Positions 19,175 to 45,164 of a stretch of 64,000 bases of DNA are shown piece after piece. The stretch lies in the NCBI RefSeq assembly GCF_029227855.1, contig NZ_CP074356.1; one strand, given 5' to 3'. The notes below the pieces were generated by a model, which was not told the origin of the DNA, did not search any database, and was given only the letters and a program-made list of their open reading frames with translations. The stretch's first letter is position 1; the number at the start of each line of letters is the position of its first letter. This stretch comes from Escherichia coli (GTDB lineage Bacteria > Pseudomonadota > Gammaproteobacteria > Enterobacterales > Enterobacteriaceae). A program made the position numbers and the translations under genes.

Positions 19175-19279
19175 GCGAGCAGCATTCCTGATTTTAAACG
19201 TGAACGCCGCTGGAAGAATTATCAGGTATAGAATGGCGTTGGGTGCTTGAGGCTGTCTGGCGTTAAGCATTCGCGAGGT

Positions 19280-19343
19280 TCCAGATGGACAAAAGCCCCA
19301 GGCGATATTTCTATCAACCTGAGGCCAGCGTTCGAACCTAAGC
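19280..19343 (-). ncRNA. Candidate Sok-type antisense RNA (sokX-like) opposite the hokX leader
   Basis: Minus-strand promoter-like elements TTGCCT (complement of 19374-19379), 17-bp spacer, TAACAT (complement of 19351-19356) overlapping the hokX SD/ATG, as in hok/sok loci; a weak hairpin plus U-run near 19280. Extent is approximate. Confidence 0.3.
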
Positions 19344-19382
19344 AATTCGAATGTTAGTCTCTTCTTTGCAGGGAGGCAAGAC

Positions 19383-19535
19383 ATGCTGACAAAATATGCC
19401 CTTGTGGCAATCATCGTACTGTGTTGTACAGTACTGGGATTCACGCTGATGGTAGGCGACTCGTTGTGTGAGTTGAGTATCAGAGAACGTGGTATGGAGT
19501 TTAAGGCAGTTCTCGCTTACGAATCGAAGAAGTAG
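19383..19535 (+). CDS. hokX: Hok-family small membrane toxin (type I toxin-antitoxin)
   Basis: 50-codon [53 protein letters not shown] with GGGAGG RBS 6 nt upstream; hydrophobic helix plus conserved Hok/Gef C-terminal pattern; below the ORF-track size cut-off. Confidence 0.75.
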
Positions 19536-19729: not shown

Positions 19730-22360
19730 ATGCGTAAATATCCTTTAAGTTTACTGAAGGATAAAAATATTGTGACTTTTTTTGATTTCTGGGGAAAAAC
19801 CCGACGCGGCGAGAAAGACGGGGGCGACGACTATCACCTTCTTTGCTGGCATTCGCTGGATGTAGCCGCGATGGGCTATTTAATGGTTAAAAGCAATTGC
19901 TTCGGGCTGACTGACTATTTTCGTCAACTAGGTTTCGCTGATACGGAGCAGGCAGCACAATTTTTCGCCTGGCTATTGTGCTGGCACGATACTGGAAAAT
20001 TTGCCCGCTCTTTTCAGCAACTTTACCTGCACCCACAACTCAAGGTTCCGGAAGGCGCAAGAAAGAATTACGAAAAGATCTCTCATTCAACGCTGGGCTA
20101 CTGGCTGTGGCATCATTATTTAAGTGAATACGAAGAATTGCTTCCTTCATCTTCACTCTCTCCGCGCAAACTTAAACGGGTGATGGAGATGTGGATGCCC
20201 ATGACTACCGGGCATCATGGTCGGCCCCCTGACCGTATTGATGAACTGGATAATTTTCTGCCTGAAGACAAAGCTGCCGCACGAGATTTTCTCCTTGAAA
20301 TCAAGGTACTGTTTCCGCTCATCGAGATCCCCGCATTCTGGGATGATGACGAGGGCATTGAACTTTTAAAACAACTTTCCTGGTATATCTCTGCAACCGT
20401 CGTACTCGCAGACTGGACGGGATCGTCAACGCGGTTTTTTCCACGCGTTGCACAGGCAATGGATATTAAAGATTACTGGCAGAAGGCTTTAGTTCAGGCT
20501 CAAAACGCCTTAACCGTCTTTCCTCCAAAAGCACAAACCGCGCCTTTCACCGGAATTAATACGCTGTTTCCTTTTATTGAGCACCCGACACCGTTACAGC
20601 AAAAGGTGCTGGATCTGGATATCAGCCAGCCTGGGCCACAGTTATTTATTCTGGAGGATGTGACTGGCGCAGGTAAAACAGAAGCGGCGCTTATCCTGGC
20701 CCACAGGTTGATGGCTGCGGGGAAAGCACAGGGTTTGTTTTTTGGCCTGCCAACAATGGCAACGGCCAATGCCATGTACGATCGGCTGGTAAAAACCTGG
20801 CTTGCTTTCTATTCGCCAGAATCCCGCCCCAGCCTGGTGCTGGCACACAGTGCCCGCACATTAATGGACCGCTTTAATGAATCACTCTGGTCCGGTGATT
20901 TAGTCGGGTCAGAAGAACCGGATGAACAAGCGTTCAGTCAGGGATGTGCGGCCTGGTTTGCCGACAGTAACAAGAAGGCGTTGCTGGCTGAAATTGGCGT
21001 CGGCACGCTGGATCAGGCGATGATGGCGGTGATGCCGTTTAAACATAATAATCTGCGGCTTCTGGGACTGAGTAACAAAATCCTGCTGGCTGATGAGATC
21101 CATGCCTGTGACGCTTACATGTCGTGCATTCTTGAAGGATTGATTGAGCGGCAGGCGCGTGGAGGAAACAGCGTTATTTTGCTTTCTGCCACGTTATCTC
21201 AACAGCAGCGCGACAAACTCGTTGCTGCCTTTGCGCGTGGTGCAGAGGGCCAGCAAGAAGCTCCGTTCCTGGAAAAGGATGATTACCCCTGGCTGACGCA
21301 CGTTACGAAATCGGATGTGCATTCACACCGGGTAGCAGCGCGCAAAGACGTTGAGCGTAGCGTGAGCGTGGGTTGGCTTCATAGCGAACAAGAGTGTATT
21401 GCGCGTATCGAATCGGCGGTAAGTCAGGGGAAATGCATCGCCTGGATCCGGAATTCTGTCGATGATGCTATTAAAGTTTATCGTCAGTTACTTGCCCGCG
21501 GCGTCATTCCTGCTTCCAGCCTTTCTCTTTTTCATAGCCGCTTTGCTTTTAGCGATCGCCAGCGAATTGAAACGGAAACGCTGGCACGCTTTGGTAAAGA
21601 AGATAGCTCACAGCGTGCCGGAAAAGTCCTCATTTGTACTCAGGTCTTAGAGTCGAGCGTTGATTGCGATATGGACGAAATGATTTCCGACCTTGCCCCC
21701 ATTGATTTGCTGATCCAGCGAGCGGGGCGATTACAGCGACATATCCGCGATATTAATGGTCAGTTAAAGCGTGACGGAAAAGACGAGCGTTCCCCTCCTG
21801 AATTGCTGATTCTGGCCCCCGTCTGGGACGACGCTCCAGGTGACGAATGGTTCGGCAGTGCCATGCGTAACAGTGCATATGTCTATCCCGATCATGGACG
21901 AATCTGGCTGACGCAGCGTGTACTGCGTGAGCAAGGCGCTATTCAAATGCCACACGCAGCCCGCCTTCTTATTGAATCAGTCTACGGTGAGGACGTGGTA
22001 ATGCCGGAAGGATTTGCCCGCAGCGAGCAGGAACAAGTGGGCAAATATTACTGCGATCGCGCAATGGCTAAAAAGTTTGTGCTGAACTTTAGGCCCGGCT
22101 ATGCCGCCAATATCAACGATTACCTCCCGGAAAAACTGTCGACACGTCTGGCTGAGGAGTCTGTTTCCCTGTGGCTGGCTACCTGTATTGCCGGTGTGGT
22201 GAAGCCTTATGCCAACGGTGCTCACGCATGGGAAATGAGCGTTGTCAGAGTGCGTCGAAGCTGGTGGAAAAACATCGGGATGAGTTTTCTTTACTGGAAG
22301 GGGAAGCGTTCAGGCAGTGGTGCATTGAACAGCGGAAAGATCCGGAGATGGCAAACGTGA
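19730..22360 (+). CDS. cas3: Cas3 HD-nuclease/helicase (type I-E); 3' end apparently frameshifted, with the conserved C-terminus continuing in the +1 frame to 22428
   Basis: 876-aa ORF with HD region (LLCWHSLDVAAMGYL...), DExH helicase motifs (GAGKTEAAL, LLADEIHACD). The last ~36 codons are low-complexity and basic, while ORF 22171-22428 in another frame encodes a tail resembling the K-12 Cas3 C-terminus. An in-frame GTG at 19772 is an alternative start. Confidence 0.85.
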   Translation: MRKYPLSLLKDKNIVTFFDFWGKTRRGEKDGGDDYHLLCWHSLDVAAMGYLMVKSNCFGLTDYFRQLGFADTEQAAQFFAWLLCWHDTGKFARSFQQLYLHPQLKVPEGARKNYEKISHSTLGYWLWHHYLSEYEELLPSSSLSPRKLKRVMEMWMPMTTGHHGRPPDRIDELDNFLPEDKAAARDFLLEIKVLFPLIEIPAFWDDDEGIELLKQLSWYISATVVLADWTGSSTRFFPRVAQAMDIKDYWQKALVQAQNALTVFPPKAQTAPFTGINTLFPFIEHPTPLQQKVLDLDISQPGPQLFILEDVTGAGKTEAALILAHRLMAAGKAQGLFFGLPTMATANAMYDRLVKTWLAFYSPESRPSLVLAHSARTLMDRFNESLWSGDLVGSEEPDEQAFSQGCAAWFADSNKKALLAEIGVGTLDQAMMAVMPFKHNNLRLLGLSNKILLADEIHACDAYMSCILEGLIERQARGGNSVILLSATLSQQQRDKLVAAFARGAEGQQEAPFLEKDDYPWLTHVTKSDVHSHRVAARKDVERSVSVGWLHSEQECIARIESAVSQGKCIAWIRNSVDDAIKVYRQLLARGVIPASSLSLFHSRFAFSDRQRIETETLARFGKEDSSQRAGKVLICTQVLESSVDCDMDEMISDLAPIDLLIQRAGRLQRHIRDINGQLKRDGKDERSPPELLILAPVWDDAPGDEWFGSAMRNSAYVYPDHGRIWLTQRVLREQGAIQMPHAARLLIESVYGEDVVMPEGFARSEQEQVGKYYCDRAMAKKFVLNFRPGYAANINDYLPEKLSTRLAEESVSLWLATCIAGVVKPYANGAHAWEMSVVRVRRSWWKNIGMSFLYWKGKRSGSGALNSGKIRRWQT

Positions 22361-22525
22361 TTTTAGTTACCGATGACGAAAGTTGCGGGTATTCGGCTAT
22401 GGAAGGATTGACTGGCAAGGTTGGTTGAGATGCCTGCGACAGGGCTCTCTGAATAGTTGATACACCGAAAAGGATGGAATGATGGACAACCGACCTGGGA
22501 TGGTCTTTTTTACGAGAGGATGCGT

Positions 22526-24088
22526 ATGAACTCGTTTTCACTTCTGACAACCCCGTGGTTGCCCGTTCGTTATAAAGACGGAACGACAGGCAAACTGGCG
22601 CCTGTCGATCTGGCGGATGAAAATGTTGTCGATATTGCTGCGCCACGGGCAGATCTCCAGGGAGCGGCATGGCAGTTTTTGCTGGGGCTACTACAAACCA
22701 GCTTTGCGCCAAAAGATCATCGTCGTTGGGATGATATCTGGGAAGACGGACTGGAATCTGAAAAGCTACGGGAAGCATTGCTGTCCTTAGAACACGCTTT
22801 CCAGTTTGGGCCAGATTCCCCTTCATTTATGCAGGATTTCGAGGCGCTCACAGGAGATAAAGTTCAGGTCGCTTCGCTACTGCCTGAGATTCCCGGCGCT
22901 CAAACAACGAAGTTTAATAAAGACCACTTTATCAAGCGTGGTGTAACGGAATACCTGTGCCCACATTGTTCTGCGTTAGCTCTGTTCTCCCTACAGTTAA
23001 ATGCGCCGTCAGGTGGTAAAGGCTACCGCACCGGTTTACGCGGCGGTGGGCCGATGACCACTCTGATTGAATTACAGGAATATCAGGGCAATCAACAAAC
23101 GCCCTTGTGGCGCAAACTGTGGCTCAATGTGATGCCGCAGGACGAAGCCGACTTACCGCTACCCAAAAAATTTGACGATCTGGTTTTCCCCTGGCTTGGC
23201 CCGACGCGTACCAGCGAACTGGCCGGTGCGGTGGTAACCGATGATCAGGTTAATAAACTCCAGGCGTACTGGGGAATGCCGCGGCGTATTCGTATTGATT
23301 TTAATACCACGACAGTCGGCAACTGCGATATTTGCGGCGAGCAGAACGACGCGCTCCTGAGCCTGATGACGACCAAAAATTACGGCGCGAATTATGCCAT
23401 GTGGCAGCATCCCTTAACGCCTTACCGTGTACCCCTTAAAGAGGGCGGCGAGTTTTACTCGGTCAAACCACAACCAGGCGGTTTAATCTGGCGCGACTGG
23501 TTAGGCCTTATCGAAACGGGTAAATCAGAAAACAATACGGAACTTCCCGCGCTGGTGGTGAAACTCTTTAATGCCAGCAGTCTCAAGCAGGCAAAAGTGG
23601 GCCTATGGGGATTTGGTTATGATTTTGACAACATGAAAGCGCGCTGTTGGTACGAACACCATTTCCCGCTACTGCTCAATAAAAAAGAAGGCCAGATACC
23701 GAAGCTGCGGCTGGCTGCGCAAACGGCTTCACGGATTCTGAGTCTGTTACGGAGTGCATTGAAAGAAGCATGGTTCTCCGATCCAAAAGGTGCAAGGGGT
23801 GATTTCAGTTTTGTGGATATCGACTTCTGGAACAAAACTCAGCATCGCTTCCTGAGGTTAGTGCGCCAAATTGAAGAAGGTCAGGATGCGGATGAATTAC
23901 TCGGCAAATGGCAAAAGGAAATTTGGTTATTCGCGCGTCAGGATTTTGACGAGCGTGTATTCACTAATCCTTATGAGCCCGTTGATTTGAAACGCGTCAT
24001 GACCGCGCGCAAGAAATATTTTACAACATCGGCGGAGAAGCAAAGTGCTAAAGCCGCCAGGGAGAAAAAGCAGGAGGCTGCTGAATGA
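22526..24088 (+). CDS. casA: Cascade large subunit Cse1 (CasA)
   Basis: Track ORF 22457-24088; start placed at the ATG 6 nt after a GAGAGG RBS (MNSFSLLTTPWLPVRYKDG..., 520 aa), matching the N-terminal pattern of K-12 CasA. Confidence 0.85.
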   Translation: MNSFSLLTTPWLPVRYKDGTTGKLAPVDLADENVVDIAAPRADLQGAAWQFLLGLLQTSFAPKDHRRWDDIWEDGLESEKLREALLSLEHAFQFGPDSPSFMQDFEALTGDKVQVASLLPEIPGAQTTKFNKDHFIKRGVTEYLCPHCSALALFSLQLNAPSGGKGYRTGLRGGGPMTTLIELQEYQGNQQTPLWRKLWLNVMPQDEADLPLPKKFDDLVFPWLGPTRTSELAGAVVTDDQVNKLQAYWGMPRRIRIDFNTTTVGNCDICGEQNDALLSLMTTKNYGANYAMWQHPLTPYRVPLKEGGEFYSVKPQPGGLIWRDWLGLIETGKSENNTELPALVVKLFNASSLKQAKVGLWGFGYDFDNMKARCWYEHHFPLLLNKKEGQIPKLRLAAQTASRILSLLRSALKEAWFSDPKGARGDFSFVDIDFWNKTQHRFLRLVRQIEEGQDADELLGKWQKEIWLFARQDFDERVFTNPYEPVDLKRVMTARKKYFTTSAEKQSAKAAREKKQEAAE

Positions 24089-24621
24089 GTATTGTAAAAG
24101 AGGAGCACAAAGCCACGCTGCGTAAATGGCACGAAGAGTTGCAGGAAAAACGCGGCAATCGTGCCAGTCTGCGGCGTAGCACAACGGTTAATGATGTTTG
24201 TCTGTCAGAAGGGTTTCGTTCTCTGCTGATGCAGACCCACACGTTGTGGAAAATTGAATCACAGGAGTGGCGTTTTACCGCACTGGCGCTGGTTGCCGCC
24301 GTTGCCGCCAATGTAAAAGCCATTGATGAACGGCAGCCTTTTGCCGCGCAGTTGGCGGCGGTAATGTCTGAGGGGCGTTTTACTCGCCTGTCGGCAGTCA
24401 AAACGCCGGATGAATTACTGCGCCAGTTACGTCGCGCGGTCAAATTATTAAATGGTTCCGTCAATCTTATCTCTTTGGCAGACGATATTTTCCGCTGGTG
24501 CCAGGAGAGCGACGATCTGCTCAATCATCACCGCCGCCAGCAGCGGCCAACAGAATTTATCCGTATCCGCTGGGCGCTGGAATATTACCAGGCTGGCGAC
24601 GCCGATAACGAACAAAATTAA
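24085..24621 (+). CDS. casB: Cascade small subunit Cse2 (CasB)
   Basis: 178-aa ORF MSIVKEEHKATLRKWHEELQEKRGNRASLRR...; overlaps the casA stop; position in the cascade operon. Confidence 0.85.
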   Translation: MSIVKEEHKATLRKWHEELQEKRGNRASLRRSTTVNDVCLSEGFRSLLMQTHTLWKIESQEWRFTALALVAAVAANVKAIDERQPFAAQLAAVMSEGRFTRLSAVKTPDELLRQLRRAVKLLNGSVNLISLADDIFRWCQESDDLLNHHRRQQRPTEFIRIRWALEYYQAGDADNEQN

Positions 24622-24635
24622 TAAAGGACTATCTC

Positions 24636-25691
24636 ATGACGACATTTATTCAGCTTCATTTGTTAACCGCTTACCCTGCTGCCAACCTTAACCGTGATGA
24701 CACCGGTGCGCCAAAAACTGTGGTACTGGGTGGAGCAACGCGTCTGCGCGTTTCCTCACAAAGTCTGAAACGTGCGTGGCGCACTTCTGCACTTTTTGAA
24801 CAGGCACTGGCGGGCCATATTGGTATTCGCAGTGGGCGTATTGCGCGTGAGGCGGCAACTATCCTGATTGAGAAAGGCATCGAAGAGAAAAAAGCCATCG
24901 AATGGGCGGCAAAAATTGCGGATTATCTTGGGAAAGCTAAAAACGACAAAAAACCAAAAGATCCGCTCACTAACGCCGAAACTGAACAGCTAGTCCATAT
25001 CAGCCCGGCAGAATTTGACGCCGTAAAAGCGCTGGCCCATCAACTGGCCGAAGAAAAGCGCGCGCCAAAAGAGGAAGATCTCGCTTTGTTACGTAAAGAT
25101 CGCATGGCGGTAGATATCGCTATGTTTGGTCGTATGCTGGCGAATAAACCCGAATTTAATGTTGAAGCCGCCTGCCAGGTCGCGCATGCATTTGGTGTCA
25201 GTGAAACGATTGTCGAAGATGATTTTTTCACCGCCGTTGATGATTTGCGCCAGGCTTCTGAAGATGCCGGTGCCGGGCATCTTGGTGAAACCGGATTCGG
25301 TTCTGCGCTGTTCTACACCTATATCTGCATCGATAAAGATCTGCTGGTCGAAAACCTCGGCGGTGACGAAGCGTTAGCTAATCAGACCTTGCGCGCCTTT
25401 ACGGAAGCCGCACTTAAAGTCTCCCCAACCGGCAAACAGAACAGCTTTGCCAGCCGTGCCTACGCCTCCTGGGCGCTGGCAGAAAAAGGCACTGAACAAC
25501 CACGCTCTCTGGCGGCGGCTTTCTATGAACCCATTAATGGCACCCGGCAGTTAGATGTGGCGGTGCAGCGTATTACAACGCTTCGCGAAAATATGAATAC
25601 GGTCTATGAACAGAAGACCGAATGCGCAAGCTTTGACGTGATGAACAAACAGGGAAGCATGAAGGACGTGCTGGACTTTATCTGCGCGTAA
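24636..25691 (+). CDS. casC: Cascade backbone subunit Cas7e (CasC)
   Basis: 351-aa ORF MTTFIQLHLLTAYPAANLNRDDTGAPKTVVLGGATRLRVSSQSLKRAWR... Confidence 0.9.
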   Translation: MTTFIQLHLLTAYPAANLNRDDTGAPKTVVLGGATRLRVSSQSLKRAWRTSALFEQALAGHIGIRSGRIAREAATILIEKGIEEKKAIEWAAKIADYLGKAKNDKKPKDPLTNAETEQLVHISPAEFDAVKALAHQLAEEKRAPKEEDLALLRKDRMAVDIAMFGRMLANKPEFNVEAACQVAHAFGVSETIVEDDFFTAVDDLRQASEDAGAGHLGETGFGSALFYTYICIDKDLLVENLGGDEALANQTLRAFTEAALKVSPTGKQNSFASRAYASWALAEKGTEQPRSLAAAFYEPINGTRQLDVAVQRITTLRENMNTVYEQKTECASFDVMNKQGSMKDVLDFICA

Positions 25692-25701
25692 GGGGCGGCT
25701 A

Positions 25702-26448
25702 ATGAGCCAATATTTGATTTTTCAGCTTCATGGGCCAATGGCATCCTGGGGCGTCGATGCCCCCGGCGAAGTGCGTCATACCCATGAACTGCCTTCGCGC
25801 TCAGCATTGCTGGGGCTGCTGGCTGCCGGGGTAGGGATTCGGCGTGATGATACCGAACGATTAAACGTGTTTAACCGCCACTATTCACTGGTGGTTTGCG
25901 CCAGCCGTAACCCGCGCTGGGCACGGGATTATCACACAATCCAGATGCCAAAAGAGGTGCGTAAAGCGCGTTATTTCAGCCGTCGCGAAGAGTTGAGCGA
26001 CCCTGATCTTCTGAGCGCGATTATCTCCCGGCGCGACTACTACACCGACGCCTGGTGGATGGTGGCGGTGGCAACAACAGCCGATGCGCCTTACAGCCTC
26101 GAACAGTTGCAGGGCGGTTTACGCCATCCAGTTTTTCCTCTTTATCTGGGGCGAAAAAGTCATCCGCTGGCGTTACCACTTGCGCCGTTACTGCTCGAAG
26201 GCAACGCGTCTGATGTCTTACGTAACGCATACCAACAGTATCAGGATAGTTTCCGCGAACTGAAAGTCTCACTCCCGAAACTTCAGGATGAATGCTGGTG
26301 GGAAGGGGAACACGACGGCCTGGTCGCGAGCAAAATATTACGTCGCCGGGATGTTCCTTTAAATCGTCAGCAGTGGCTGTTTGGGGAACGCACCATCAAT
26401 CAGGGGCCGTGGCTCAGCAAGGAGGAACCATGTACCTCTCAAGAATAA
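25702..26448 (+). CDS. casD: Cascade subunit Cas5e (CasD)
   Basis: 248-aa ORF MSQYLIFQLHGPMASWGVDAPGEVRHT...; same N-terminal pattern as K-12 CasD (MRSYLILRLAGPMQAWG). Confidence 0.9.
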   Translation: MSQYLIFQLHGPMASWGVDAPGEVRHTHELPSRSALLGLLAAGVGIRRDDTERLNVFNRHYSLVVCASRNPRWARDYHTIQMPKEVRKARYFSRREELSDPDLLSAIISRRDYYTDAWWMVAVATTADAPYSLEQLQGGLRHPVFPLYLGRKSHPLALPLAPLLLEGNASDVLRNAYQQYQDSFRELKVSLPKLQDECWWEGEHDGLVASKILRRRDVPLNRQQWLFGERTINQGPWLSKEEPCTSQE

Positions 26449-27076
26449 CCTTACATACCGGCCAGCTTTCGCCTGCGCAGTTGCTGCATCTGGTGGATCG
26501 CGGTGAATATGTAATGCATCAGTGGCTGTGGGATCTTTTTCCTGGCGGCAAAGAAAGGCAATTTCTTTATCGTCGGGAAGAACTCCTGGGGGCGTTTCGC
26601 TTTTTTGTCCTGTCGCAGGAACGCCCGGCGGAAAATGATATTTTCACCATCGAATGCCGACCATTTGCGCCAGAGTTGCGTACCGGACAATCCCTTTGTT
26701 TCAACCTGCGGGCGAATCCAACAATTTGTAAAGCGGGCAAACGCCACGACTTGCTGATGGAGGCGAAACGGCAGGTGAGGGGGCAGGTGGAAGGAAGTGA
26801 TGTCTGGTTGCATCAACAACAGGCGGCGCTGGACTGGCTGGCAGCGCAGGGGGAAAGAAGCGGTTTTACACTACTGGATACCTCGGTCGATGCCTACCGA
26901 CAACAGCAACTGCGGCGGGAAAACTCCCGGCAACTGATCCAGTTCAGTAGCGTGGATTATACGGGGATGCTTACGGTCACCGATCCTGGGTTATTTCTGC
27001 AACGTCTGAGCCAGGGGTATGGCAAAAGCCGCGCGTTCGGCTGTGGTCTGATGCTGATCAAACCCGGAGCAGAGGC

Positions 27077-27080
<4 letters not shown>
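26430..27080 (+). CDS. casE: crRNA endoribonuclease Cas6e (CasE)
   Basis: Track ORF 26292-27080; start at ATG after AGGAGG RBS (MYLSRITLHTGQLSPAQLLHLVDRGEYVMHQWLWDLFPG..., 216 aa); C-terminal GCGLM-type motif. Confidence 0.85.
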
Positions 27081-28290
<1,210 letters not shown>

Positions 28291-28386
28291 GTTATCTGTT
28301 CTTTAAAAATAAGGAAATGTTTTAATTTAGTTGGTAGATTGTTGATGCGGAATAAATTTGTTTAAAAACAGTTATGTATGCTTAGT
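28291..28386 (+). promoter_or_regulatory. CRISPR leader of array 2 (AT-rich, GTTGGTAGATTGT box)
   Basis: 96-bp AT-rich spacer between the cas2 stop and the first repeat; box TTTAGTTGGTAGATTGTTGATG shared with the array 1 leader. Confidence 0.5.
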
Positions 28387-29025
28387 GTGTTCCCCGCGCC
28401 AGCGGGGATAAATCGAGATCACCGTGTTAAATAACCGATTGAACGCCGTGTTCCCCGCGCCAGCGGGGATAAATCGGCCAGGCCAATACAGTTGGCGAAG
28501 AAGCGAAGGTGTTCCCCGCGCCAGCGGGGATAAATCGACACCGGGCTGGATAAAAAAACTATCGGGAAAGTGTTCCCCGCGCCAGCGGGGATAAATCGCC
28601 GTTTGATAGCTGTTCACGCTGGCTGATGCCGTGTTCCCCGCGCCAGCGGGGATAAACCGCGCAGTTCGCTACCGAGCGTGGTTTGCTGGTCGTGTTCCCC
28701 GCGCCAGCGGGGATAAACCGGCGCACAGCGACGCGAAATCAACGAAAATTTAGTGTTCCCCGCGCCAGCGGGGATAAACCGATTGCCAGATACTGTGTAT
28801 ATCCACCGACTAAGTGTTCCCCGCGCCAGCGGGGATAAACCGCAGGGAAACCGTTCGTACTTATCGACCTCAACGTGTTCCCCGCGCCAGCGGGGATAAA
28901 CCGAAGGGGACGGCTACGGGACGCCGCCTATTGATGTGTTCCCCGCGTCAGCGGGGATAAACCGGACGCACTGGATGCGATGATGGACATCACTTGGAGT
29001 TCCCCGCCCCTGCGGTAGAACTCCC
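28387..29025 (+). CRISPR. Type I-E CRISPR array (cas-associated), 10 spacers
   Basis: Ten 29-bp repeats at a 61-bp period (28387 ... 28936) plus a degenerate terminal repeat at 28997-29025; ten unique 32-bp spacers. Repeats 1-4 end AAATCG, repeats 5-10 end AAACCG. Confidence 0.95.
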
Positions 29026-39112: not shown

Positions 39113-40105
39113 ATGAGTCAGAATACGCTGAAAGTTCATGATTTAAATGAAGATGCGGAATTTGATGAGAACGGAGTTGAGGTTTTTGACGAAAAGGCCT
39201 TAGTAGAAGAGGAACCCAGTGATAACGATTTGGCCGAAGAGGAACTGTTATCGCAGGGAGCCACACAGCGTGTGCTGGACGCGACTCAGCTTTACCTTGG
39301 TGAGATTGGTTATTCACCACTGTTAACGGCCGAAGAAGAAGTTTATTTTGCGCGTCGCGCACTGCGTGGAGATGTTGCCTCCCGCCGCCGGATGATCGAG
39401 AGTAACTTGCGTCTGGTGGTAAAAATTGCCCGCCGTTATGGCAATCGTGGTCTGGCGTTGCTGGACCTGATCGAAGAGGGCAACCTGGGGCTGATCCGCG
39501 CGGTAGAGAAGTTTGACCCGGAACGTGGTTTCCGCTTCTCAACATACGCAACCTGGTGGATTCGCCAGACGATCGAACGGGCGATTATGAACCAAACCCG
39601 TACTATTCGTTTGCCTATTCACATCGTAAAGGAGCTGAACGTTTACCTGCGAACCGCACGCGAGTTGTCCCATAAACTGGACCACGAACCAAGTGCGGAA
39701 GAGATCGCAGAGCAACTGGATAAGCCAGTTGATGACGTCAGCCGTATGCTTCGTCTTAACGAGCGCATTACCTCGGTAGACACCCCGCTGGGTGGTGATT
39801 CCGAAAAAGCGTTGCTGGACATCCTGGCCGATGAAAAAGAGAACGGTCCGGAAGATACCACGCAAGATGACGATATGAAGCAGAGCATCGTCAAATGGCT
39901 GTTCGAGCTGAACGCCAAACAGCGTGAAGTACTGGCACGTCGATTCGGTTTGCTGGGGTACGAAGCGGCAACACTGGAAGATGTAGGTCGTGAAATTGGC
40001 CTCACCCGTGAACGTGTTCGCCAGATTCAGGTTGAAGGCCTGCGCCGTTTGCGCGAAATCCTGCAAACGCAGGGGCTGAATATCGAAGCGCTGTTCCGCG
40101 AGTAA
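39113..40105 (+). CDS. rpoS: RNA polymerase sigma factor RpoS (sigma-38), apparently intact
   Basis: Track ORF 39077-40105; start at [40 protein letters not shown]... (330 aa); sigma-70 family regions 2-4; no internal stop. Confidence 0.95.
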
Positions 40106-40120
40106 GTAAGCATCTGTCAG

Positions 40121-40153
40121 AAAGGCCAGTCTCAAGCGAGGCTGGCCTTTTTG
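40121..40153 (+). terminator. Rho-independent terminator of rpoS
   Basis: Stem AGGCCAG...CTGGCCT (40123-40129 / 40142-40148) followed by TTTTTG, 16 bp after the rpoS stop. Confidence 0.6.
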
Positions 40154-40154
40154 T

Positions 40155-40875
40155 TGTGCACAGAAAACCCCCAGCTAGGCTGGGGGTTCCGGAAAGCTTT
40201 CAGCTTTAAGCCAGTTATTAAAACCCCTTTTGATTTGTTAAAACACCTTGCGGTCTGGCAACTGCAAGTGTCAAACAAGAAATCAAAAGGGGGTCCCAAT
40301 GGGGAACGAAAAGAGCTTAGCGCACACCCGATGGAACTGTAAATATCACATAGTTTTTGCGCCAAAATACCGAAGACAGGTGTTCTACAGAGAGAAGCGT
40401 AGAGCAATAGGCAGTATTTTGAGAAAGCTGTGTGAGTGGAAAAGTGTACGGATTCTGGAAGCTGAATGCTGTGCAGATCATATCCATATGCTTGTGGAGA
40501 TCCCGCCCAAAATGAGCGTATCCGGCTTTATGGGATATCTGAAAGGGAAAAGCAGTCTGATGCTTTACGAGCAGTTTGGTGATTTGAAATTCAAATACAG
40601 GAACAGGGAGTTCTGGTGCAGAGGGTACTACGTCGATACGGTGGGTAAGAACACGGCGAAGATACAGGATTACATAAAGCACCAGCTTGAAGAGGATAAA
40701 ATGGGAGAGCAGTTATCGATTCCCTATCCGGGCAGCCCGTTTACGGGCCGTAAGTAACGAAGTTGGATGCAAATGTCAGATCGTGTGCGCCTGTTAGGGC
40801 GCGGCTGGTAAGAGAGCCTTATAGGCGCATTTGAAAAACCTCCGGCTATGCCGGAGGATATTTATTTCTTTTGGT
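40155..40875 (+). mobile_element. IS200-family insertion sequence (IS200/IS605 family); ends approximate
   Basis: About 0.7 kb unit with a left-end hairpin (CCCCCAGCTAGGCTGGGGG, ~40166-40188), a single Y1-transposase gene, and a right-end hairpin CCTCCGGCTATGCCGGAGG (~40838-40856) followed by a T-rich run; IS200 lacks terminal inverted repeats, so ends are estimated. Confidence 0.6.
40299..40757 (+). CDS. tnpA: IS200 transposase TnpA (HuH Y1 transposase)
   Basis: Track ORF 40248-40757; start at MGNEKSLAHTRWNCKYHIVFAPKYRRQVFY... (152 aa); HxH motif (ADHIHMLVEIPP); near-identical to recalled Salmonella IS200 TnpA. Confidence 0.85.
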   Translation: MGNEKSLAHTRWNCKYHIVFAPKYRRQVFYREKRRAIGSILRKLCEWKSVRILEAECCADHIHMLVEIPPKMSVSGFMGYLKGKSSLMLYEQFGDLKFKYRNREFWCRGYYVDTVGKNTAKIQDYIKHQLEEDKMGEQLSIPYPGSPFTGRK

Positions 40876-40939
40876 TGGGGAGCCGGTGTGTTTGTGGGCT
40901 GGATAAGCCGCGATAGCGTCTCATCCGGCAATTTGCACC

Positions 40940-41347
40940 CTATGTGTTCATCATCTTGCGCACTAGCTGCATAAACAGCTCCTGCTCTTCTCCACTCAAA
41001 CGCCCCAAAAATTCCTCATCCACGCTGTCACCTATCGGTATCGCCGCAGCAAGTATCTTTTCGCCTTCGGCAGTCAGCCAGACAAAGCGTCGCCGCTTGT
41101 CAGCGGCGTCATGTTCACGTCTGACTAAGCCACGATTTTCCATTCTTGCCAACATTTCTGCCAGCGTTGCTTTGGTGCTGACGGCTGCTTCTATCAGTGC
41201 CACCTGTTCGATACCAGGCTTATCAGCAATGGCGCGCATCACCGCGTACTGTGGTTTGGTCAGGTCAGGTAACTCGTGCTGCCAGCGGGCCGTGTGTTGC
41301 TGAAAAAGCTGTCGTAACTGATGGAACGCTTTATTTCGTAACGCCAT
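40940..41347 (-). CDS. MarR-family transcriptional regulator
   Basis: 135-aa ORF MALRNKAFHQLRQLFQQHTARWQHELPDLTKPQYAVMRAIADKPGIEQVALIEAAVSTKATLAEMLARMENRGLVRRE...; winged-helix MarR pattern; divergent from the decarboxylase operon. Confidence 0.75.
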   Translation of the reverse strand: MALRNKAFHQLRQLFQQHTARWQHELPDLTKPQYAVMRAIADKPGIEQVALIEAAVSTKATLAEMLARMENRGLVRREHDAADKRRRFVWLTAEGEKILAAAIPIGDSVDEEFLGRLSGEEQELFMQLVRKMMNT

Positions 41348-41462
41348 GTAAACTCCGGGCTAATTCTCTGTCGCTATCATAGCGGTTTTTCAGTGACGAA
41401 GAAGATGTTGTTACTTTTCAATCCTTGCCGCTGTGGAAATGAAGGAGTATGTTAATAATAAC

Positions 41463-41476
41463 GTTCGTATACGAAC
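41463..41476. promoter_or_regulatory. Perfect 14-bp palindrome GTTCGTATACGAAC, candidate operator for the MarR-family regulator
   Basis: Perfect dyad 17 bp upstream of the UbiX-like gene ATG, in the divergent intergenic region. Confidence 0.4.
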
Positions 41477-41493
41477 AATTAAGAGAGTAAGCA

Positions 41494-42087
41494 ATGAAAC
41501 TGATCGTCGGGATGACAGGGGCTACCGGTGCGCCTCTTGGTGTGGCATTACTGCAAGCGCTGCGGGAGATGCCGAATGTCGAGACTCATCTGGTGATGTC
41601 GAAGTGGGCGAAAACCACTATTGAACTGGAAACGCCTTACAGCGCTCGCGATGTTGCCGCCCTCGCAGACTTCAGCCATAACCCGGCGGATCAGGCGGCG
41701 ACCATCTCCTCAGGTTCCTTTCGTACCGACGGCATGATCGTTATTCCGTGCAGTATGAAAACGCTCGCCGGTATCCGTGCCGGTTACGCCGATGGCCTGG
41801 TAGGGCGCGCGGCGGACGTCGTGCTCAAAGAAGGCCGCAAACTAGTGCTGGTGCCGCGTGAAATGCCGCTTAGCACCATCCATCTCGAAAATATGCTCGC
41901 ACTTTCACGCATGGGCGTGGCGATGGTGCCGCCGATGCCTGCCTTTTATAACCATCCCGAAACGGTAGATGACATTGTCCACCACGTGGTAGCCCGCGTG
42001 CTGGATCAATTTGGCCTCGAACATCCCCACGCCAGGCGCTGGCAAGAATTGCCGCAGGTCCGGAATTTTTCTCAGGAGAATGAATAA
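41494..42087 (+). CDS. UbiX-like flavin prenyltransferase (decarboxylase subunit B; Pad1/KpdB/EcdB type)
   Basis: 197-aa ORF MKLIVGMTGATGAPLGVALLQALREMPNVETHLVMSKWAKTTIELE... Confidence 0.85.
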   Translation: MKLIVGMTGATGAPLGVALLQALREMPNVETHLVMSKWAKTTIELETPYSARDVAALADFSHNPADQAATISSGSFRTDGMIVIPCSMKTLAGIRAGYADGLVGRAADVVLKEGRKLVLVPREMPLSTIHLENMLALSRMGVAMVPPMPAFYNHPETVDDIVHHVVARVLDQFGLEHPHARRWQELPQVRNFSQENE

Positions 42088-43514
42088 TGGCATTTGATAA
42101 TTTACGCAGCTTTTTACAGGCGCTTGATGACCACGGCCAGTTACTGAAAATCAGCGAAGAGGTGAACGCGGAACCGGATCTGGCAGCAGCAGCTAACGCC
42201 ACCGGGCGTATCGGCGACGGCGCGCCCGCGCTGTGGTTTGACAATATTCGCGGCTTTACCGATGCCCGTGTGGCGATGAATACCATCGGTTCCTGGCAGA
42301 ACCACGCGATTTCCCTCGGCCTGCCGCCAAACACCCCGGTCAAAAAGCAGATTGATGAGTTTATCCGCCGCTGGGATAACTTCCCCATTGCCCCGGAGCG
42401 CCGCGCCAATCCAGCCTGGGCGCAGAACACCGTCGATGGCGACGAGATCAACCTGTTCGATATCCTGCCGCTGTTTCGTTTAAACGATGGCGATGGCGGT
42501 TTCTATCTCGACAAAGCGTGCGTGGTTTCCCGCGATCCGCTCGACCCGGATAACTTCGGCAAGCAGAACGTCGGTATCTATCGTATGGAAGTGAAGGGCA
42601 AACGTAAGCTCGGCCTGCAACCGGTGCCGATGCACGATATCGCCCTGCATCTGCATAAAGCGGAAGAACGCGGTGAAGATCTGCCGATTGCCATCACCTT
42701 GGGTAACGATCCGATCATCACGCTGATGGGGGCCACGCCGCTGAAATATGATCAGTCCGAGTATGAAATGGCAGGCGCGCTGCGCGAAAGCCCGTACCCG
42801 ATCGCCACCGCCCCGCTGACCGGTTTTGATGTGCCGTGGGGCTCGGAAGTGATCCTCGAAGGGGTCATCGAAAGCCGTAAACGCGAAATCGAAGGGCCGT
42901 TCGGTGAGTTTACCGGGCACTACTCCGGCGGGCGTAACATGACCGTGGTGCGTATCGATAAAGTCTCTTACCGCACCAGGCCGATTTTCGAATCGCTGTA
43001 CCTCGGCATGCCGTGGACAGAAATCGACTACCTGATGGGGCCAGCCACCTGCGTGCCGCTGTATCAGCAACTGAAAGCCGAGTTCCCGGAAGTGCAGGCG
43101 GTGAACGCCATGTACACCCACGGCCTGCTGGCGATTATCTCCACCAAAAAACGCTACGGTGGCTTTGCCCGCGCGGTGGGCCTGCGTGCGATGACCACGC
43201 CACACGGTCTGGGCTACGTGAAGATGGTGATTATGGTCGATGAAGACGTTGATCCGTTCAACCTGCCGCAGGTGATGTGGGCGCTCTCTTCGAAAGTGAA
43301 CCCGGCAGGGGATTTGGTGCAGTTGCCGAATATGTCCGTGCTGGAACTCGACCCTGGCTCAAGCCCGGCCGGTATCACCGACAAGCTGATTATCGACGCC
43401 ACCACGCCTGTCGCCCCGGACAACCGTGGTCACTACAGCCAGCCGGTGGTGGATTTACCGGAAACCAAAGCCTGGGCTGAAAAACTGACCGCTATGCTGG
43501 CCGCACGTAAATAA
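42087..43514 (+). CDS. UbiD-family non-oxidative aromatic acid decarboxylase (subunit C)
   Basis: 475-aa ORF MAFDNLRSFLQALDDHGQLLKISEEVNAEPDLAAAANATGR...; UbiD family by recalled similarity. Confidence 0.85.
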   Translation: MAFDNLRSFLQALDDHGQLLKISEEVNAEPDLAAAANATGRIGDGAPALWFDNIRGFTDARVAMNTIGSWQNHAISLGLPPNTPVKKQIDEFIRRWDNFPIAPERRANPAWAQNTVDGDEINLFDILPLFRLNDGDGGFYLDKACVVSRDPLDPDNFGKQNVGIYRMEVKGKRKLGLQPVPMHDIALHLHKAEERGEDLPIAITLGNDPIITLMGATPLKYDQSEYEMAGALRESPYPIATAPLTGFDVPWGSEVILEGVIESRKREIEGPFGEFTGHYSGGRNMTVVRIDKVSYRTRPIFESLYLGMPWTEIDYLMGPATCVPLYQQLKAEFPEVQAVNAMYTHGLLAIISTKKRYGGFARAVGLRAMTTPHGLGYVKMVIMVDEDVDPFNLPQVMWALSSKVNPAGDLVQLPNMSVLELDPGSSPAGITDKLIIDATTPVAPDNRGHYSQPVVDLPETKAWAEKLTAMLAARK

Positions 43515-43524
43515 GGAGAACAAG

Positions 43525-43761
43525 ATGATTTGTCCACGTTGTGCCGATGAACAGATTGAAGTGATGGCGAAATCGCCGGTAAAAGATGTCTGGACGGTCT
43601 ACCAGTGCCAGCATTGCCTCTATACCTGGCGCGATACCGAACCGCTACGCCGCACCAGCCGCGAACATTACCCGGAAGCGTTTCGTATGACGCAGAAAGA
43701 CATTGATGACGCGCCAATGGTGCCGAGCATTCCGCCGCTGCTGGCGGAAGGTAAGCGCTAA
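43525..43761 (+). CDS. Decarboxylase small subunit D (zinc-ribbon-like, four Cys)
   Basis: 78-aa ORF MICPRCADEQIEVMAKSPVKDVWTVYQCQHCLYTWRD... with CxxC...CxxC; third gene of the B-C-D operon, 10 bp after subunit C. Confidence 0.7.
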   Translation: MICPRCADEQIEVMAKSPVKDVWTVYQCQHCLYTWRDTEPLRRTSREHYPEAFRMTQKDIDDAPMVPSIPPLLAEGKR

Positions 43762-43763
43762 AT

Positions 43764-43795
43764 AAAAGGTCCGATGCCCATCGGACCTTTTTATT
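43764..43795. terminator. Bidirectional hairpin terminator between convergent decarboxylase operon and ygbN
   Basis: AAAAGGTCCGATG...CATCGGACCTTTTT: GC-rich hairpin flanked by A-run and T-run. Confidence 0.5.
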
Positions 43796-43799
43796 AAGG

Positions 43800-45164
43800 T
43801 CAAATTACCGCCCATACGCACCAGGTAATTAAGAATCCGGTAAAACCGAGAATGGTCGTTAACACTGTCCAGGTTTTCAGACCGTCTGCTACCGACAACC
43901 CCAGATATTTGGTCACAATCCAGAACCCTGAGTCATTAATATGTGACGCGCCAAGCCCACCAAAGCAGGCTGCCAGCGTCACCAATACGCACTGAATCGG
44001 ATTCAATCCCATCACCGCTTCTGAGAGTAACCCGCCGGTTGTCAGGATTGCTACGGTTGCTGACCCCTGCGATGCACGCAGCGCCAGTGAAATAATAAAT
44101 GCGGCTGGTAACAGAGGCAGGTCAATCATTTGTAGCATGTTGGCAAGGGCTTTGCCGACGCCCGATTCCACCAGCACTTTGCCAAATACCCCTCCAGCAC
44201 CAGTAACCAAAATCACTACCGCCGCGGTGGGAAGGGCTGAGCCCATAATGTCGCTGGTGTGTTGTAAGCTCCAGCCGCGACGTAAAGCCAATAACCAGAA
44301 TGCCAGCACCAGCGCAATCATTAGAGCTACCATTGGTGAGCCGATCAGCTGTAGCGTACCAAGCAGGGGATGCGAAGGCGGCATCAGTGTTGCGGAAACC
44401 GTACCCGCCATGATAATCGCGATAGGAATAACAATTAGCGAGGTGACCAGCGCGACGCCCGGTGGATTTATTTTATCGCTTAATTTTGTCGCGCCTTCCT
44501 CACTGGCCGGAGCCAGTTGCATCTGTTCCAGTACTTCCACCGACATCGCATATTGGCACTTATTGATTATTTTCGCTGCAAAGTAGCCAACAATCCCTAC
44601 GGGAATAGAAATCGCAATACCGATGATGGTTAGCCAGCCGATGTCTGCGTGGAGTAACCCCGCTGCGGCGACAGGGCCTGGATGCGGCGGTACCGCCACA
44701 TGAACAGTTAGCATGATTCCAGCGACAGGCAGGCCAAATTTGAGTGGCGATATTTTGGCAACCTTGGCAAAACCGTAAATGATTGGCGCAAGAATAATAA
44801 AGCCGACATCAAAGAAGACGGGAATACCGAGGAAGAACGCTGCCAGAGTCAGCGCAGCGATAGTTCGTTTGTCACCTAACTTGCGACTGAAATAATTAGC
44901 CAGTGACTCTGCACCACCAGAGTGTTCGATCATACGCCCCAGCATAGCGCCCAGACCAATAATAATAGTGACGGAACCAAGCACACCGCCCATCCCGGCG
45001 ATCATCACTTTACCCACTTCGCCCGCCGGTATACCCGCCGCAAGTGCGACTAACAGGCTGACGAGGAGCAGAGCAACGAATGGTTGTACCTTTGCCTTGA
45101 TGACCAGCAGCAACAGCATGATTACGCCAGTTAACGCAATGCATAACAATGTAATTGTGGACAT
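43800..45164 (-). CDS. ygbN: GntP-family permease
   Basis: 454-aa polytopic membrane ORF MSTITLLCIALTGVIMLLLLVIKAKVQPFVALLLVSLLVALAAG... Confidence 0.85.
   Translation of the reverse strand: MSTITLLCIALTGVIMLLLLVIKAKVQPFVALLLVSLLVALAAGIPAGEVGKVMIAGMGGVLGSVTIIIGLGAMLGRMIEHSGGAESLANYFSRKLGDKRTIAALTLAAFFLGIPVFFDVGFIILAPIIYGFAKVAKISPLKFGLPVAGIMLTVHVAVPPHPGPVAAAGLLHADIGWLTIIGIAISIPVGIVGYFAAKIINKCQYAMSVEVLEQMQLAPASEEGATKLSDKINPPGVALVTSLIVIPIAIIMAGTVSATLMPPSHPLLGTLQLIGSPMVALMIALVLAFWLLALRRGWSLQHTSDIMGSALPTAAVVILVTGAGGVFGKVLVESGVGKALANMLQMIDLPLLPAAFIISLALRASQGSATVAILTTGGLLSEAVMGLNPIQCVLVTLAACFGGLGASHINDSGFWIVTKYLGLSVADGLKTWTVLTTILGFTGFLITWCVWAVI

Follow-up and report, generated by a model that had tools for sequence, protein, structure and literature searches.

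The stretch of Escherichia coli DNA analysed here (64 kb in length, referred to as the window) carries an island of 2.9 kb (40868-43762) in the rpoS-mutS region. The open reading frame list of the window places the end of rpoS at 40105 and that of the convergent gene ygbN at 43800. The island contains a regulatory gene, hosA (40940-41347, minus strand, 135 aa), and, divergent from it on the plus strand and in this order, vdcB (41494-42087, 197 aa), vdcC (42087-43514, 475 aa) and vdcD (43525-43761, 78 aa). The vdcB and vdcC genes overlap by 1 nt, the vdcC ATG lying within TAATG, and vdcC and vdcD are separated by a gap of 10 nt. A preliminary description of this DNA had proposed a MarR-family gene divergent from a UbiX/UbiD/zinc-ribbon trio, located in the rpoS-mutS variable region. 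All of these genes are present in the open reading frame list where it had placed them, and the location is borne out by the neighbouring rpoS and ygbN genes and by the junction alignments described below.

The regulator, annotated in RefSeq as a member of the MarR family, matched the protein of PDB 8AGA ('Transcriptional regulator HosA') with 133 of 135 residues identical (E=2.4e-84). By this match it is HosA, a MarR-family winged-helix repressor responding to 4-hydroxybenzoate. The two substitutions relative to the crystallised E2348/69 protein are I98 for V and G119 for A, and F15 and D110, residues named in section titles of a HosA preprint, are unchanged.

The products of the three divergent genes all passed the corresponding NCBIfam cut-offs: VdcB with 310.8 bits (cut-off 290), VdcC with 788.9 bits (650) and VdcD with 121.2 bits (30). 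VdcB, a UbiX-type flavin prenyltransferase making prFMN, is identical at 194 of 197 positions to Pad1 of O157:H7 (PDB 1SBZ). VdcC, the UbiD-family catalytic subunit, aligned over residues 3-471 with ShVdcC (PDB 7AE4_A; E=9e-160, 535.7 bits). It keeps the residues of the catalytic E(D)RE motif described for UbiD (PMC8379154), with R166 in NVGIYR and E269 and E274 in EGPFGEFTGHY, and its motifs align with those of ShVdcC and E. coli UbiD. VdcD, a zinc-ribbon activator subunit, matched ShdD (PDB 7AE4_a; E=3.4e-11), and its zinc-ribbon cysteines, Cys 3, 6, 28 and 31, form two CxxC knuckles and fall at the residue numbers given for the ShVdcD zinc ligands (PMC8379154). Judged by these matches, the enzyme trio is vdcB/C/D, also named ecdBCD, kpdBCD or pad1-yclC-yclD (vdcB being ecdB or pad1, vdcC ecdC or yclC, and vdcD ecdD or yclD). 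The family cut-offs and the solved structures together bear out the earlier reading of these genes as a UbiX/UbiD/small zinc-ribbon aromatic-acid decarboxylase operon.

The limits of the island were taken from junction alignments with ET12567, a K-12 derivative, and with O157:H7. The spacing between rpoS and ygbN in ET12567 is only 93 bp, and 11 bp (CTGTGCACAAT) stand where the island would be; the preliminary description was therefore right that K-12 lacks it. The comparison with the rpoS-mutS region of O157:H7 that it suggested revealed an orthologous cluster adjoining rpoS there as in the window, with 95.5% nucleotide identity across 2.9 kb. O157:H7 lacks the ygbI-ygbN genes and has its island next to pphB-mutS; the island of the window adjoins ygbN. 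The E2348/69-type 'pattern IV' and the '2.9-kb insertion' of PMC4209514 represent the arrangement that matches the island of the window. The converging genes vdcD and ygbN share a bidirectional hairpin terminator (43764-43795; RNA fold -18 kcal/mol, z = -4.3). Its sequence is also present in K-12, as the terminator of ygbN. An automated terminator scan did not flag the vdcD/ygbN hairpin, though folding confirms that it is a clear one.

A copy of IS200C (40153-40867, plus strand, 715 bp), which does not belong to the operon, separates the rpoS terminator from the island; it went unmentioned in the preliminary description. It contains tnpA (40299-40757; NCBIfam transpos_IS200, 147.7 bits against a cut-off of 55) and STnc490, the RNA of the IS200C 5' UTR (40166-40289; Rfam RF01405, 146 bits). 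The element is missing from O157 and K-12 in the alignments, and an IS200-hosA junction was found in just 16 of 5426 genomes.

Of 5426 complete E. coli genomes, 2417 (~44%) have the island itself and the remaining 3009 do not. Across enterobacteria the cluster adjoins rpoS in approximately 68 of 80 species, in most of those between rpoS and mutS, and hosA is divergent from vdcBCD at 72 of the 80 species loci. A recent foreign insertion was considered as the origin of the island; because the cluster adjoins rpoS in so many of these species, loss from K-12-type lineages is at least as likely.

The hosA-vdcB intergenic region contains a perfect 14-bp palindrome, GTTCGTATACGAAC (41463-41476), which has a single exact match in the window and is followed by 17 nt before the vdcB ATG at 41494. 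It had been put forward as the operator of the MarR regulator, and it equals the published binding site of HosA, O1: oligonucleotides used for EMSA, BLI and d-PAGE in PMC6261655 carry the palindrome with the flanks found in the window. In that work HosA of E. coli UMN026 bound synthetic DNA with the 14-bp palindromic site, and 4-hydroxybenzoate released HosA. In the PMC6261655 supplement, the site appears in some oligonucleotides as GTTTCGTATACGAAC, one T longer; the text gives 14 bp, and another oligonucleotide contains the exact 14-mer. Statistical rarity was dropped as an argument, since the window holds three perfect 14-bp palindromes against a mean of 3.7 in shuffles, and such palindromes are not rare in 64 kb. 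The palindrome is significant because of its position, its cross-species conservation and the published binding assays. Among 72 other species, 68 have the pattern GTTCG-YRYR-CGAAC exactly and three, all Rahnella, have it with a single mismatch; it lies mostly 15-21 bp from the vdcB ATG. The arms GTTCG/CGAAC are conserved, and the four central base pairs vary only within the limits of YRYR.

A promoter for vdcBCD is predicted immediately upstream of O1. The putative -35 element, TTGCCG (41425-41430, plus strand), has a TTG that is conserved in 95% or more of 73 intergenic regions and that does not vary in a 7-genus alignment; the putative -10 element, TATGTT (41448-41453, plus strand), lies 17 nt from it and shows a TAnnnT conserved in the 73 regions. 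Transcription would then start near 41460, and we infer that O1 occupies about +4 to +17 of this TTGCCG-17-TATGTT promoter. The implied start agrees with the position of the HosA site, downstream of the transcription start, given in summaries of Roy & Ranjan 2016 (Biochemistry 55:1120). A strict sigma-70 consensus scan of 40100-43900 found no promoter, so that the exact hexamers and the start site are predictions from conservation. For hosA, the conservation profile of the 73 regions suggests a proximal -10 element, TATGAT (41376-41381, minus strand), within a conserved 13-bp palindrome, CGCTATCATAGCG (41372-41384). Repression by HosA of its own gene and of the non-oxidative hydroxyarylic acid decarboxylase (HAD) operon, with induction by 4-hydroxybenzoate, is reported in the same summaries of Roy & Ranjan 2016. 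As the single operator lies ~80-100 bp upstream of the predicted hosA -10 element, the predicted promoter leaves the reported autorepression unexplained. With the proximal element hosA would start near 41369; a possible distal hosA promoter on either side of O1 (TTAATT at 41482-41477 and TATTAT at 41460-41455, minus strand) could account for the autorepression instead.

Other genera carry a second operator-like site. At 56-57 bp upstream of O1, and immediately ahead of the -35 element, 37 of 73 enterobacterial intergenic regions have the sequence GATCG-YRYR-CGAAC (O2, GATCGYRYRCGAAC); they include those of Klebsiella, Enterobacter, Kluyvera, Leclercia, Lelliottia, Pseudocitrobacter and others. 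Only O1 was found in Escherichia, in most Citrobacter and Salmonella, and in the window, where a repeat search of 41340-41500 returned just the surroundings of O1 but not another such site. Should O2 be a genuine HosA site, the switch of the Escherichia lineage would be a simplified one with a single operator, and the tightness of repression and the mode of hosA autoregulation could change. We suggest, tentatively and with the balance somewhat against it, that regulatory architecture may differ among genera and, separately, that IS200C by the hosA 3' end could alter hosA/rpoS 3'-end processing.

The whole locus is very probably the known E. coli hosA-vdcBCD, a HosA-regulated HAD locus, for which ecdBCD and slyA-pad1-yclC-yclD are other names; no evidence contradicting this explanation was found. 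In the mechanism proposed, a HosA dimer bound to GTTCGTATACGAAC, just downstream of the vdcB transcription start, would block RNA polymerase. Binding of 4-hydroxybenzoate would take HosA off the DNA, and vdcBCD would then be transcribed as one translationally coupled unit. VdcB would prenylate reduced FMN to give prFMN, with which VdcC, using its conserved Arg/Glu/Glu triad, would decarboxylate 4-hydroxybenzoate, giving phenol, and probably also vanillate, giving guaiacol. VdcD, the zinc-ribbon subunit, would bind VdcC and be needed for its activity. Of these elements, the gene identities and motifs, the exact match of the operator with the published one, the conservation of operator and promoter, the absence from K-12 and the distribution come from the present analysis. 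DNA binding, the response to 4-hydroxybenzoate, repression, enzyme activity and the role of VdcD come from the literature, and were determined with alleles from which those of the window differ in the hosA-vdcB intergenic region (87.7% identical to that of O157) and by the two HosA substitutions.

The substrate had been described as not evident, which is correct for the sequence alone but not for the literature: for EcdCD from E. coli O157:H7, the substrate table of a review (PMC6644310, citing Lupa et al. 2005) gives 4-hydroxybenzoate as the best substrate and lists a second compound, which is taken to be vanillate. HosA, too, has 4-hydroxybenzoate as its specific effector, and close analogues gave no HosA release. 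Others have in essence already carried out, on near-identical alleles, the checks proposed in the preliminary description, namely comparison with O157, EMSA with and without phenolic acids, and decarboxylase assays.

The substrate evidence bears directly on a different physiological role, in which the enzyme acts mainly on vanillate, protocatechuate or gallate, or carboxylates phenol. The family is described as reversible, the substrate range differs among its members, and the E. coli enzyme is itself listed with a second substrate. However, 4-hydroxybenzoate is both the marked best substrate of the O157:H7 enzyme and the specific effector of HosA, and the solved AroY protocatechuate decarboxylases (5O3M, 5NY5) gave only 90-99 bits with VdcC, compared with 535.7 for ShVdcC. 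We therefore regard a role other than 4-hydroxybenzoate decarboxylation as unlikely. Still less credible is the view that vdcBC serve as spare ubiX and ubiD genes for the ubiquinone pathway, acting on 3-polyprenyl-4-hydroxybenzoate. The superfamilies are in common, VdcB passes the generic UbiX models (TIGR00421, 246 bits, cut-off 108.9; NF004685, 256.6 bits, cut-off 188) and VdcC matches E. coli UbiD with E=4e-46. On the other hand, VdcC scored 171.5 bits with the UbiD equivalog model NF008175, for which the cut-off is 788, and the cluster includes the zinc-ribbon D subunit that is specifically needed by Vdc-type enzymes (PMC8379154). It is also dispensable, being missing from the 3009 genomes without the island. 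On these grounds we give this explanation almost no weight.

The operator, too, could be interpreted otherwise, if the main role of the palindrome were to form a hairpin in RNA or DNA, for instance a stem-loop in the 5' UTR or a leftward terminator, and not to serve as a protein operator. The terminator scan does flag it on the minus strand, as a 6-bp stem followed by TTATTATT, and variation among species is confined to the four central positions that would form the loop. Against this, binding of HosA to the palindrome sequence and its release by 4-hydroxybenzoate have been reported. The stem has only 5-6 pairs, and its arms are invariant without compensatory changes, and therefore lend no positive support to pairing. 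In the second site of other genera, the right half-site is retained and the palindromic pairing is not. A hairpin as the main function of O1 thus appears very improbable, and HosA binding is the preferred reading of the palindrome.

Every element of the locus is already known and published, which makes the finding, though correct, an ordinary one. The mosaic rpoS-mutS region has a textbook example in this locus, its finding here adds little past confirmation, and the comparative results raise no new question. This analysis adds to the literature the conservation of the operator arms across genera, the placement of the promoter, the second site elsewhere and the rare IS200C. The operon is carried by ~44% of complete E. 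coli genomes, and the strains that have it could potentially make phenol from 4-hydroxybenzoate in the gut. HosA and its operator already serve as a biosensor for 4-hydroxybenzoate, a breakdown product of parabens, and the invariant half-sites, the YRYR core and the second site elsewhere could aid the engineering of HosA sensors or the annotation of its regulon.

Several known systems resemble the locus to different degrees. The top NCBIfam matches for HosA and VdcB were the BagL and BagM models (BagL/BagM/BagN: NF041230, NF041218 and NF041219), which suggests that the pairing of MarR and UbiX proteins may be old. The scores with the Bag models were far under the family cut-offs (88 against 230, 338 against 420 and 113 against 1000 bits), and the window proteins are therefore not members of BagL, BagM or BagN. 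The nearest other solved MarR protein to HosA is PcaV of Streptomyces (PDB 4FHT; E=8e-16). UbiX and UbiD of ubiquinone biosynthesis share the folds and chemistry of a prFMN synthase and a prFMN-dependent decarboxylase; VdcC differs from that UbiD in taking a soluble phenolic-acid substrate, in needing a D subunit and in being the product of an accessory rather than a core gene. AroY (PDB 5O3M, 5NY5) is, like VdcC, an enterobacterial UbiD-family aromatic acid decarboxylase depending on a UbiX-type partner, but its substrate, protocatechuate, is different and its similarity to VdcC is not close. Apart from unrelated acronyms, the literature found under the names ecdB and ecdC was mostly on EcdB/EcdD of Enterobacter cloacae, employed together with AroY. 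ShVdcCD and BsdBCD, from Sedimentibacter hydroxybenzoicus and Bacillus subtilis (PDB 7AE4; PMC8379154), are alike in their B-C-D family, catalytic motif and four zinc cysteines. They are distant orthologues of the enzyme in the window. The regulator of B. subtilis BsdBCD belongs to another family than the MarR-type HosA. EcdBCD (Pad1-YclC-YclD) of E. coli O157:H7 is orthologous to the genes of the window and also lies beside rpoS. The HosA/HAD operon of UMN026 (HosA structures PDB 8AGA and others) has the same regulator, the same divergent layout, the same 14-bp operator with its flanks and the same place of the operator before the first gene. The window differs from the UMN026 system in having IS200C just past the hosA 3' end, a divergent intergenic allele and two HosA residue changes.

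All four open reading frames of the preliminary description, a divergent MarR-family regulator gene and a three-gene operon, were found where it had placed them. hosA, encoding the regulator, is on the minus strand (40940–41347, 135 amino acids). The UbiX-like vdcB (41494–42087, 197 amino acids), the UbiD-like vdcC (42087–43514, 475 amino acids) and the small gene vdcD (43525–43761, 78 amino acids) are on the plus strand. The vdcB stop codon and vdcC ATG overlap (TAATG), and 10 nt separate vdcC from vdcD, which has the ribosome-binding site AAGGAG. Downstream of vdcD is a hairpin (−18 kcal/mol, z = −4.3) that in K-12 terminates ygbN.

The three operon products scored above the curated cut-offs of the NCBIfam models VdcB (310.8 against 290 bits), VdcC (788.9 against 650) and VdcD (121.2 against 30), which represent ‘non-oxidative hydroxyarylic acid decarboxylase’ subunits B, C and D; RefSeq carries the same annotation in every E. 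coli genome sampled. The regulator is identical at 133 of 135 positions to PDB 8AGA, ‘Transcriptional regulator HosA’, and VdcB at 194 of 197 to PDB 1SBZ, which we take to be Pad1 of E. coli O157:H7. ShVdcC from the solved VdcCD complex 7AE4 aligned to VdcC residues 3–471 (E=9e-160), with R166, E269 and E274 retained within the motifs NVGIYR and EGPFGEFTGHY. VdcD was matched by the ShdD chain of 7AE4 and contains Cys 3, 6, 28 and 31, the four zinc ligands of ShVdcD (PMC8379154). The MarR regulator and UbiX/UbiD/small-subunit aromatic-acid decarboxylase recognized from the sequence are thus HosA and VdcBCD.

An exact match search located the palindrome GTTCGTATACGAAC once in the window, at 41463–41476, and confirmed its reported distance of 17 nt from the vdcB ATG (41494). 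A perfect 14-bp palindrome is unremarkable in 64 kb (the window has three, shuffled versions 3.7 on average), so the case for function must rest on other evidence. Cao et al. (PMC6261655) reported HosA binding to the site by EMSA and BLI, and its release by 4-hydroxybenzoate. Their oligonucleotides contain GTTCGTATACGAAC flanked by AATAATAAC and AATTAAGAGA, some being printed with an extra T (GTTTCG...), and the same flanks surround the palindrome in the window. Judged by the shared 14-mer and flanks, the palindrome is the published HosA operator (O1), as the preliminary description had proposed in calling it an operator candidate. Close analogues of 4-hydroxybenzoate fail to release HosA (PMC6694116). 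Both sensor papers cite Roy & Ranjan 2016, which, as summarized in a preprint, described HosA as repressing both itself and the hydroxyarylic acid decarboxylase operon, with strong induction of that operon by 4-hydroxybenzoate, and placed a palindromic site downstream of where transcription starts.

The motif GTTCG-YRYR-CGAAC was compared across 72 comparable intergenic regions of other species: 68 have it exactly, and three Rahnella species have it with one mismatch. Except in five species, its distance to the vdcB ATG is 15–21 bp. The five-base arms are invariant; the four central bases vary by transitions only, keeping the pyrimidine–purine alternation. Outside the operator the intergenic region is poorly conserved, O157 being just 87.7% identical to the window, with the exception of TTG (41425–41427) and TAnnnT (41448–41453), 17 nt apart. 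TTGCCG and TATGTT would be the −35 and −10 of a predicted vdcB promoter, whose start near 41460 would leave the operator covering roughly +4 to +17, in line with the roadblock model already published. The minus strand has another conserved block, TATnAT (41381–41376), inside a 13-bp palindrome, CGCTATCATAGCG (41372–41384), that has a core conserved across species and lies 25–37 nt upstream of the hosA ATG. The block is plausibly the hosA −10. Autorepression would not be explained by this promoter, because it is 80–100 bp away from the operator; a distal minus-strand promoter bracketing the operator, TTAATT-16-TATTAT, is possible.

A second operator-like site was present in 37 of 73 enterobacterial intergenic regions (L010, L012, L019, L022–L026, L030, L033, L034, L036–L038, L040 and others), 56–57 bp upstream of O1, directly upstream of the −35 and about 72–77 bp from the vdcB ATG. 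Its consensus is GATCG-YRYR-CGAAC, with an invariant right arm. Among the 73 regions it was absent from Escherichia, including the window, and from most Citrobacter and Salmonella.

Alignment with a K-12 derivative and O157:H7 delimited an island of 2,895 bp (40868–43762). Its left end directly follows the rpoS terminator T-run and its right end the vdcD stop codon. In K-12 the island is replaced by 11 bp, CTGTGCACAAT, in keeping with the claim that K-12 lacks the operon. Among 5426 complete E. coli genomes, 2417 carry the island, and every copy is chromosomal. All four genes have the same divergent arrangement in 72 of 80 other enterobacterial species encoding a HosA relative; rpoS is on the hosA side in about 68 of the 80, and mutS on the opposite side in most of these. 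This shared arrangement and these flanks indicate that the cluster is an old resident of the rpoS site, which K-12-type strains may have lost.

Across genera (L004–L082, two partial-match loci set aside), protein identity is 89–100% for VdcC and falls to 78–90% for VdcB and 59–81% for HosA; constraint is much stronger on the catalytic subunit than on the regulator. In five species (L054, L066, L069, L074, L081) hosA adjoins vdcC–vdcD and vdcB was not detected; these presumably rely on housekeeping UbiX for prFMN. The island allele of the window is rare, with at least 99% identity in only 2 of the 2417 genomes and mostly 95–98%. Against O157, the neighbouring rpoS and nlpD show about 99% identity and the hosA–vdcB spacer only 87.7%, a contrast that fits the known mosaic, recombinant rpoS–mutS region. 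Only E. coli JNEC-KY178 (L001) is 100% identical over 39901–44100; it has IS1A between nlpD and rpoS (L001 4261–4958), where the window has none.

An IS200C copy (40153–40867; tnpA 40299–40757, Rfam STnc490 match 40166–40289) is inserted right after the rpoS terminator T-run, convergent with hosA. Its junction with hosA is common to only 16 of the 5426 genomes. In another strain, an inserted element of the IS200 family is reported between ygbN and rpoS (PMC4209514), so this position may be targeted repeatedly. The 72-bp spacer between hosA and IS200C holds a REP-like imperfect palindrome, GCTGGATAAGCCGCGATAGCGTCTCATCCGGC (40890–40925), directly past the hosA 3′ end.

Elsewhere, the window carries a type I-E CRISPR-Cas locus (19730–28964; Cas3, Cse1, Cas1e), with GTGTTCCCCGCGCCAGCGGGGATAAACCG repeated 10 times at 61-bp spacing in an array (28387–28964) adjoining iap. 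Cas3 (423 against 569 bits) and Cse1 (104 against 576 bits) score under the K-12 equivalog cut-offs, which identifies the locus as the divergent cas variant. At 19241–19398, a short way upstream of cas3, is a match to the sok antitoxin RNA (Rfam RF01794, 111.7 bits).

In the proposed mechanism, HosA would occupy O1 without inducer and block vdcBCD transcription, and 4-hydroxybenzoate would release it. VdcB would then make prFMN, and a VdcC hexamer activated by the zinc-ribbon subunit VdcD would decarboxylate 4-hydroxybenzoate to phenol. Gene identities, motifs and operator identity were shown directly and promoter positions were inferred, while the evidence for binding, induction and catalysis is published work on alleles that are nearly identical. 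Sensitivity to oxygen is reported for the enzyme (PMC8379154).

A table in a review (PMC6644310) gives 4-hydroxybenzoate as the best substrate of recombinant E. coli O157:H7 EcdCD, along with a second compound, taken to be vanillate. A different main substrate or reaction direction is possible but disfavoured, as HosA effector and best enzyme substrate coincide. The genes cannot be a redundant UbiX/UbiD pair of the ubiquinone pathway: VdcC falls below the ubiquinone UbiD equivalog cut-off (171.5 against 788 bits), a D subunit is present, and the cluster is dispensable, as its distribution in E. coli demonstrates. A purely RNA or DNA hairpin role for the palindrome found no positive support.

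The hosA–vdcBCD observation is confirmed and its interpretation as a MarR-regulated aromatic-acid decarboxylase operon supported; the system itself was known before. The solved AroY enzymes are distant from VdcC (90–99 bits). The gene order in the window, rpoS–hosA–vdcBCD–ygbN...ygbI–pphB–mutS, corresponds to ‘pattern IV’, the E2348/69 type, in Ewers et al. (PMC4209514), who also recount the original ‘2.9-kb insertion’ of O157:H7. In the comparison with O157:H7 suggested by the preliminary description the island aligned, but the ygb genes present in the window are missing from the O157:H7 locus.
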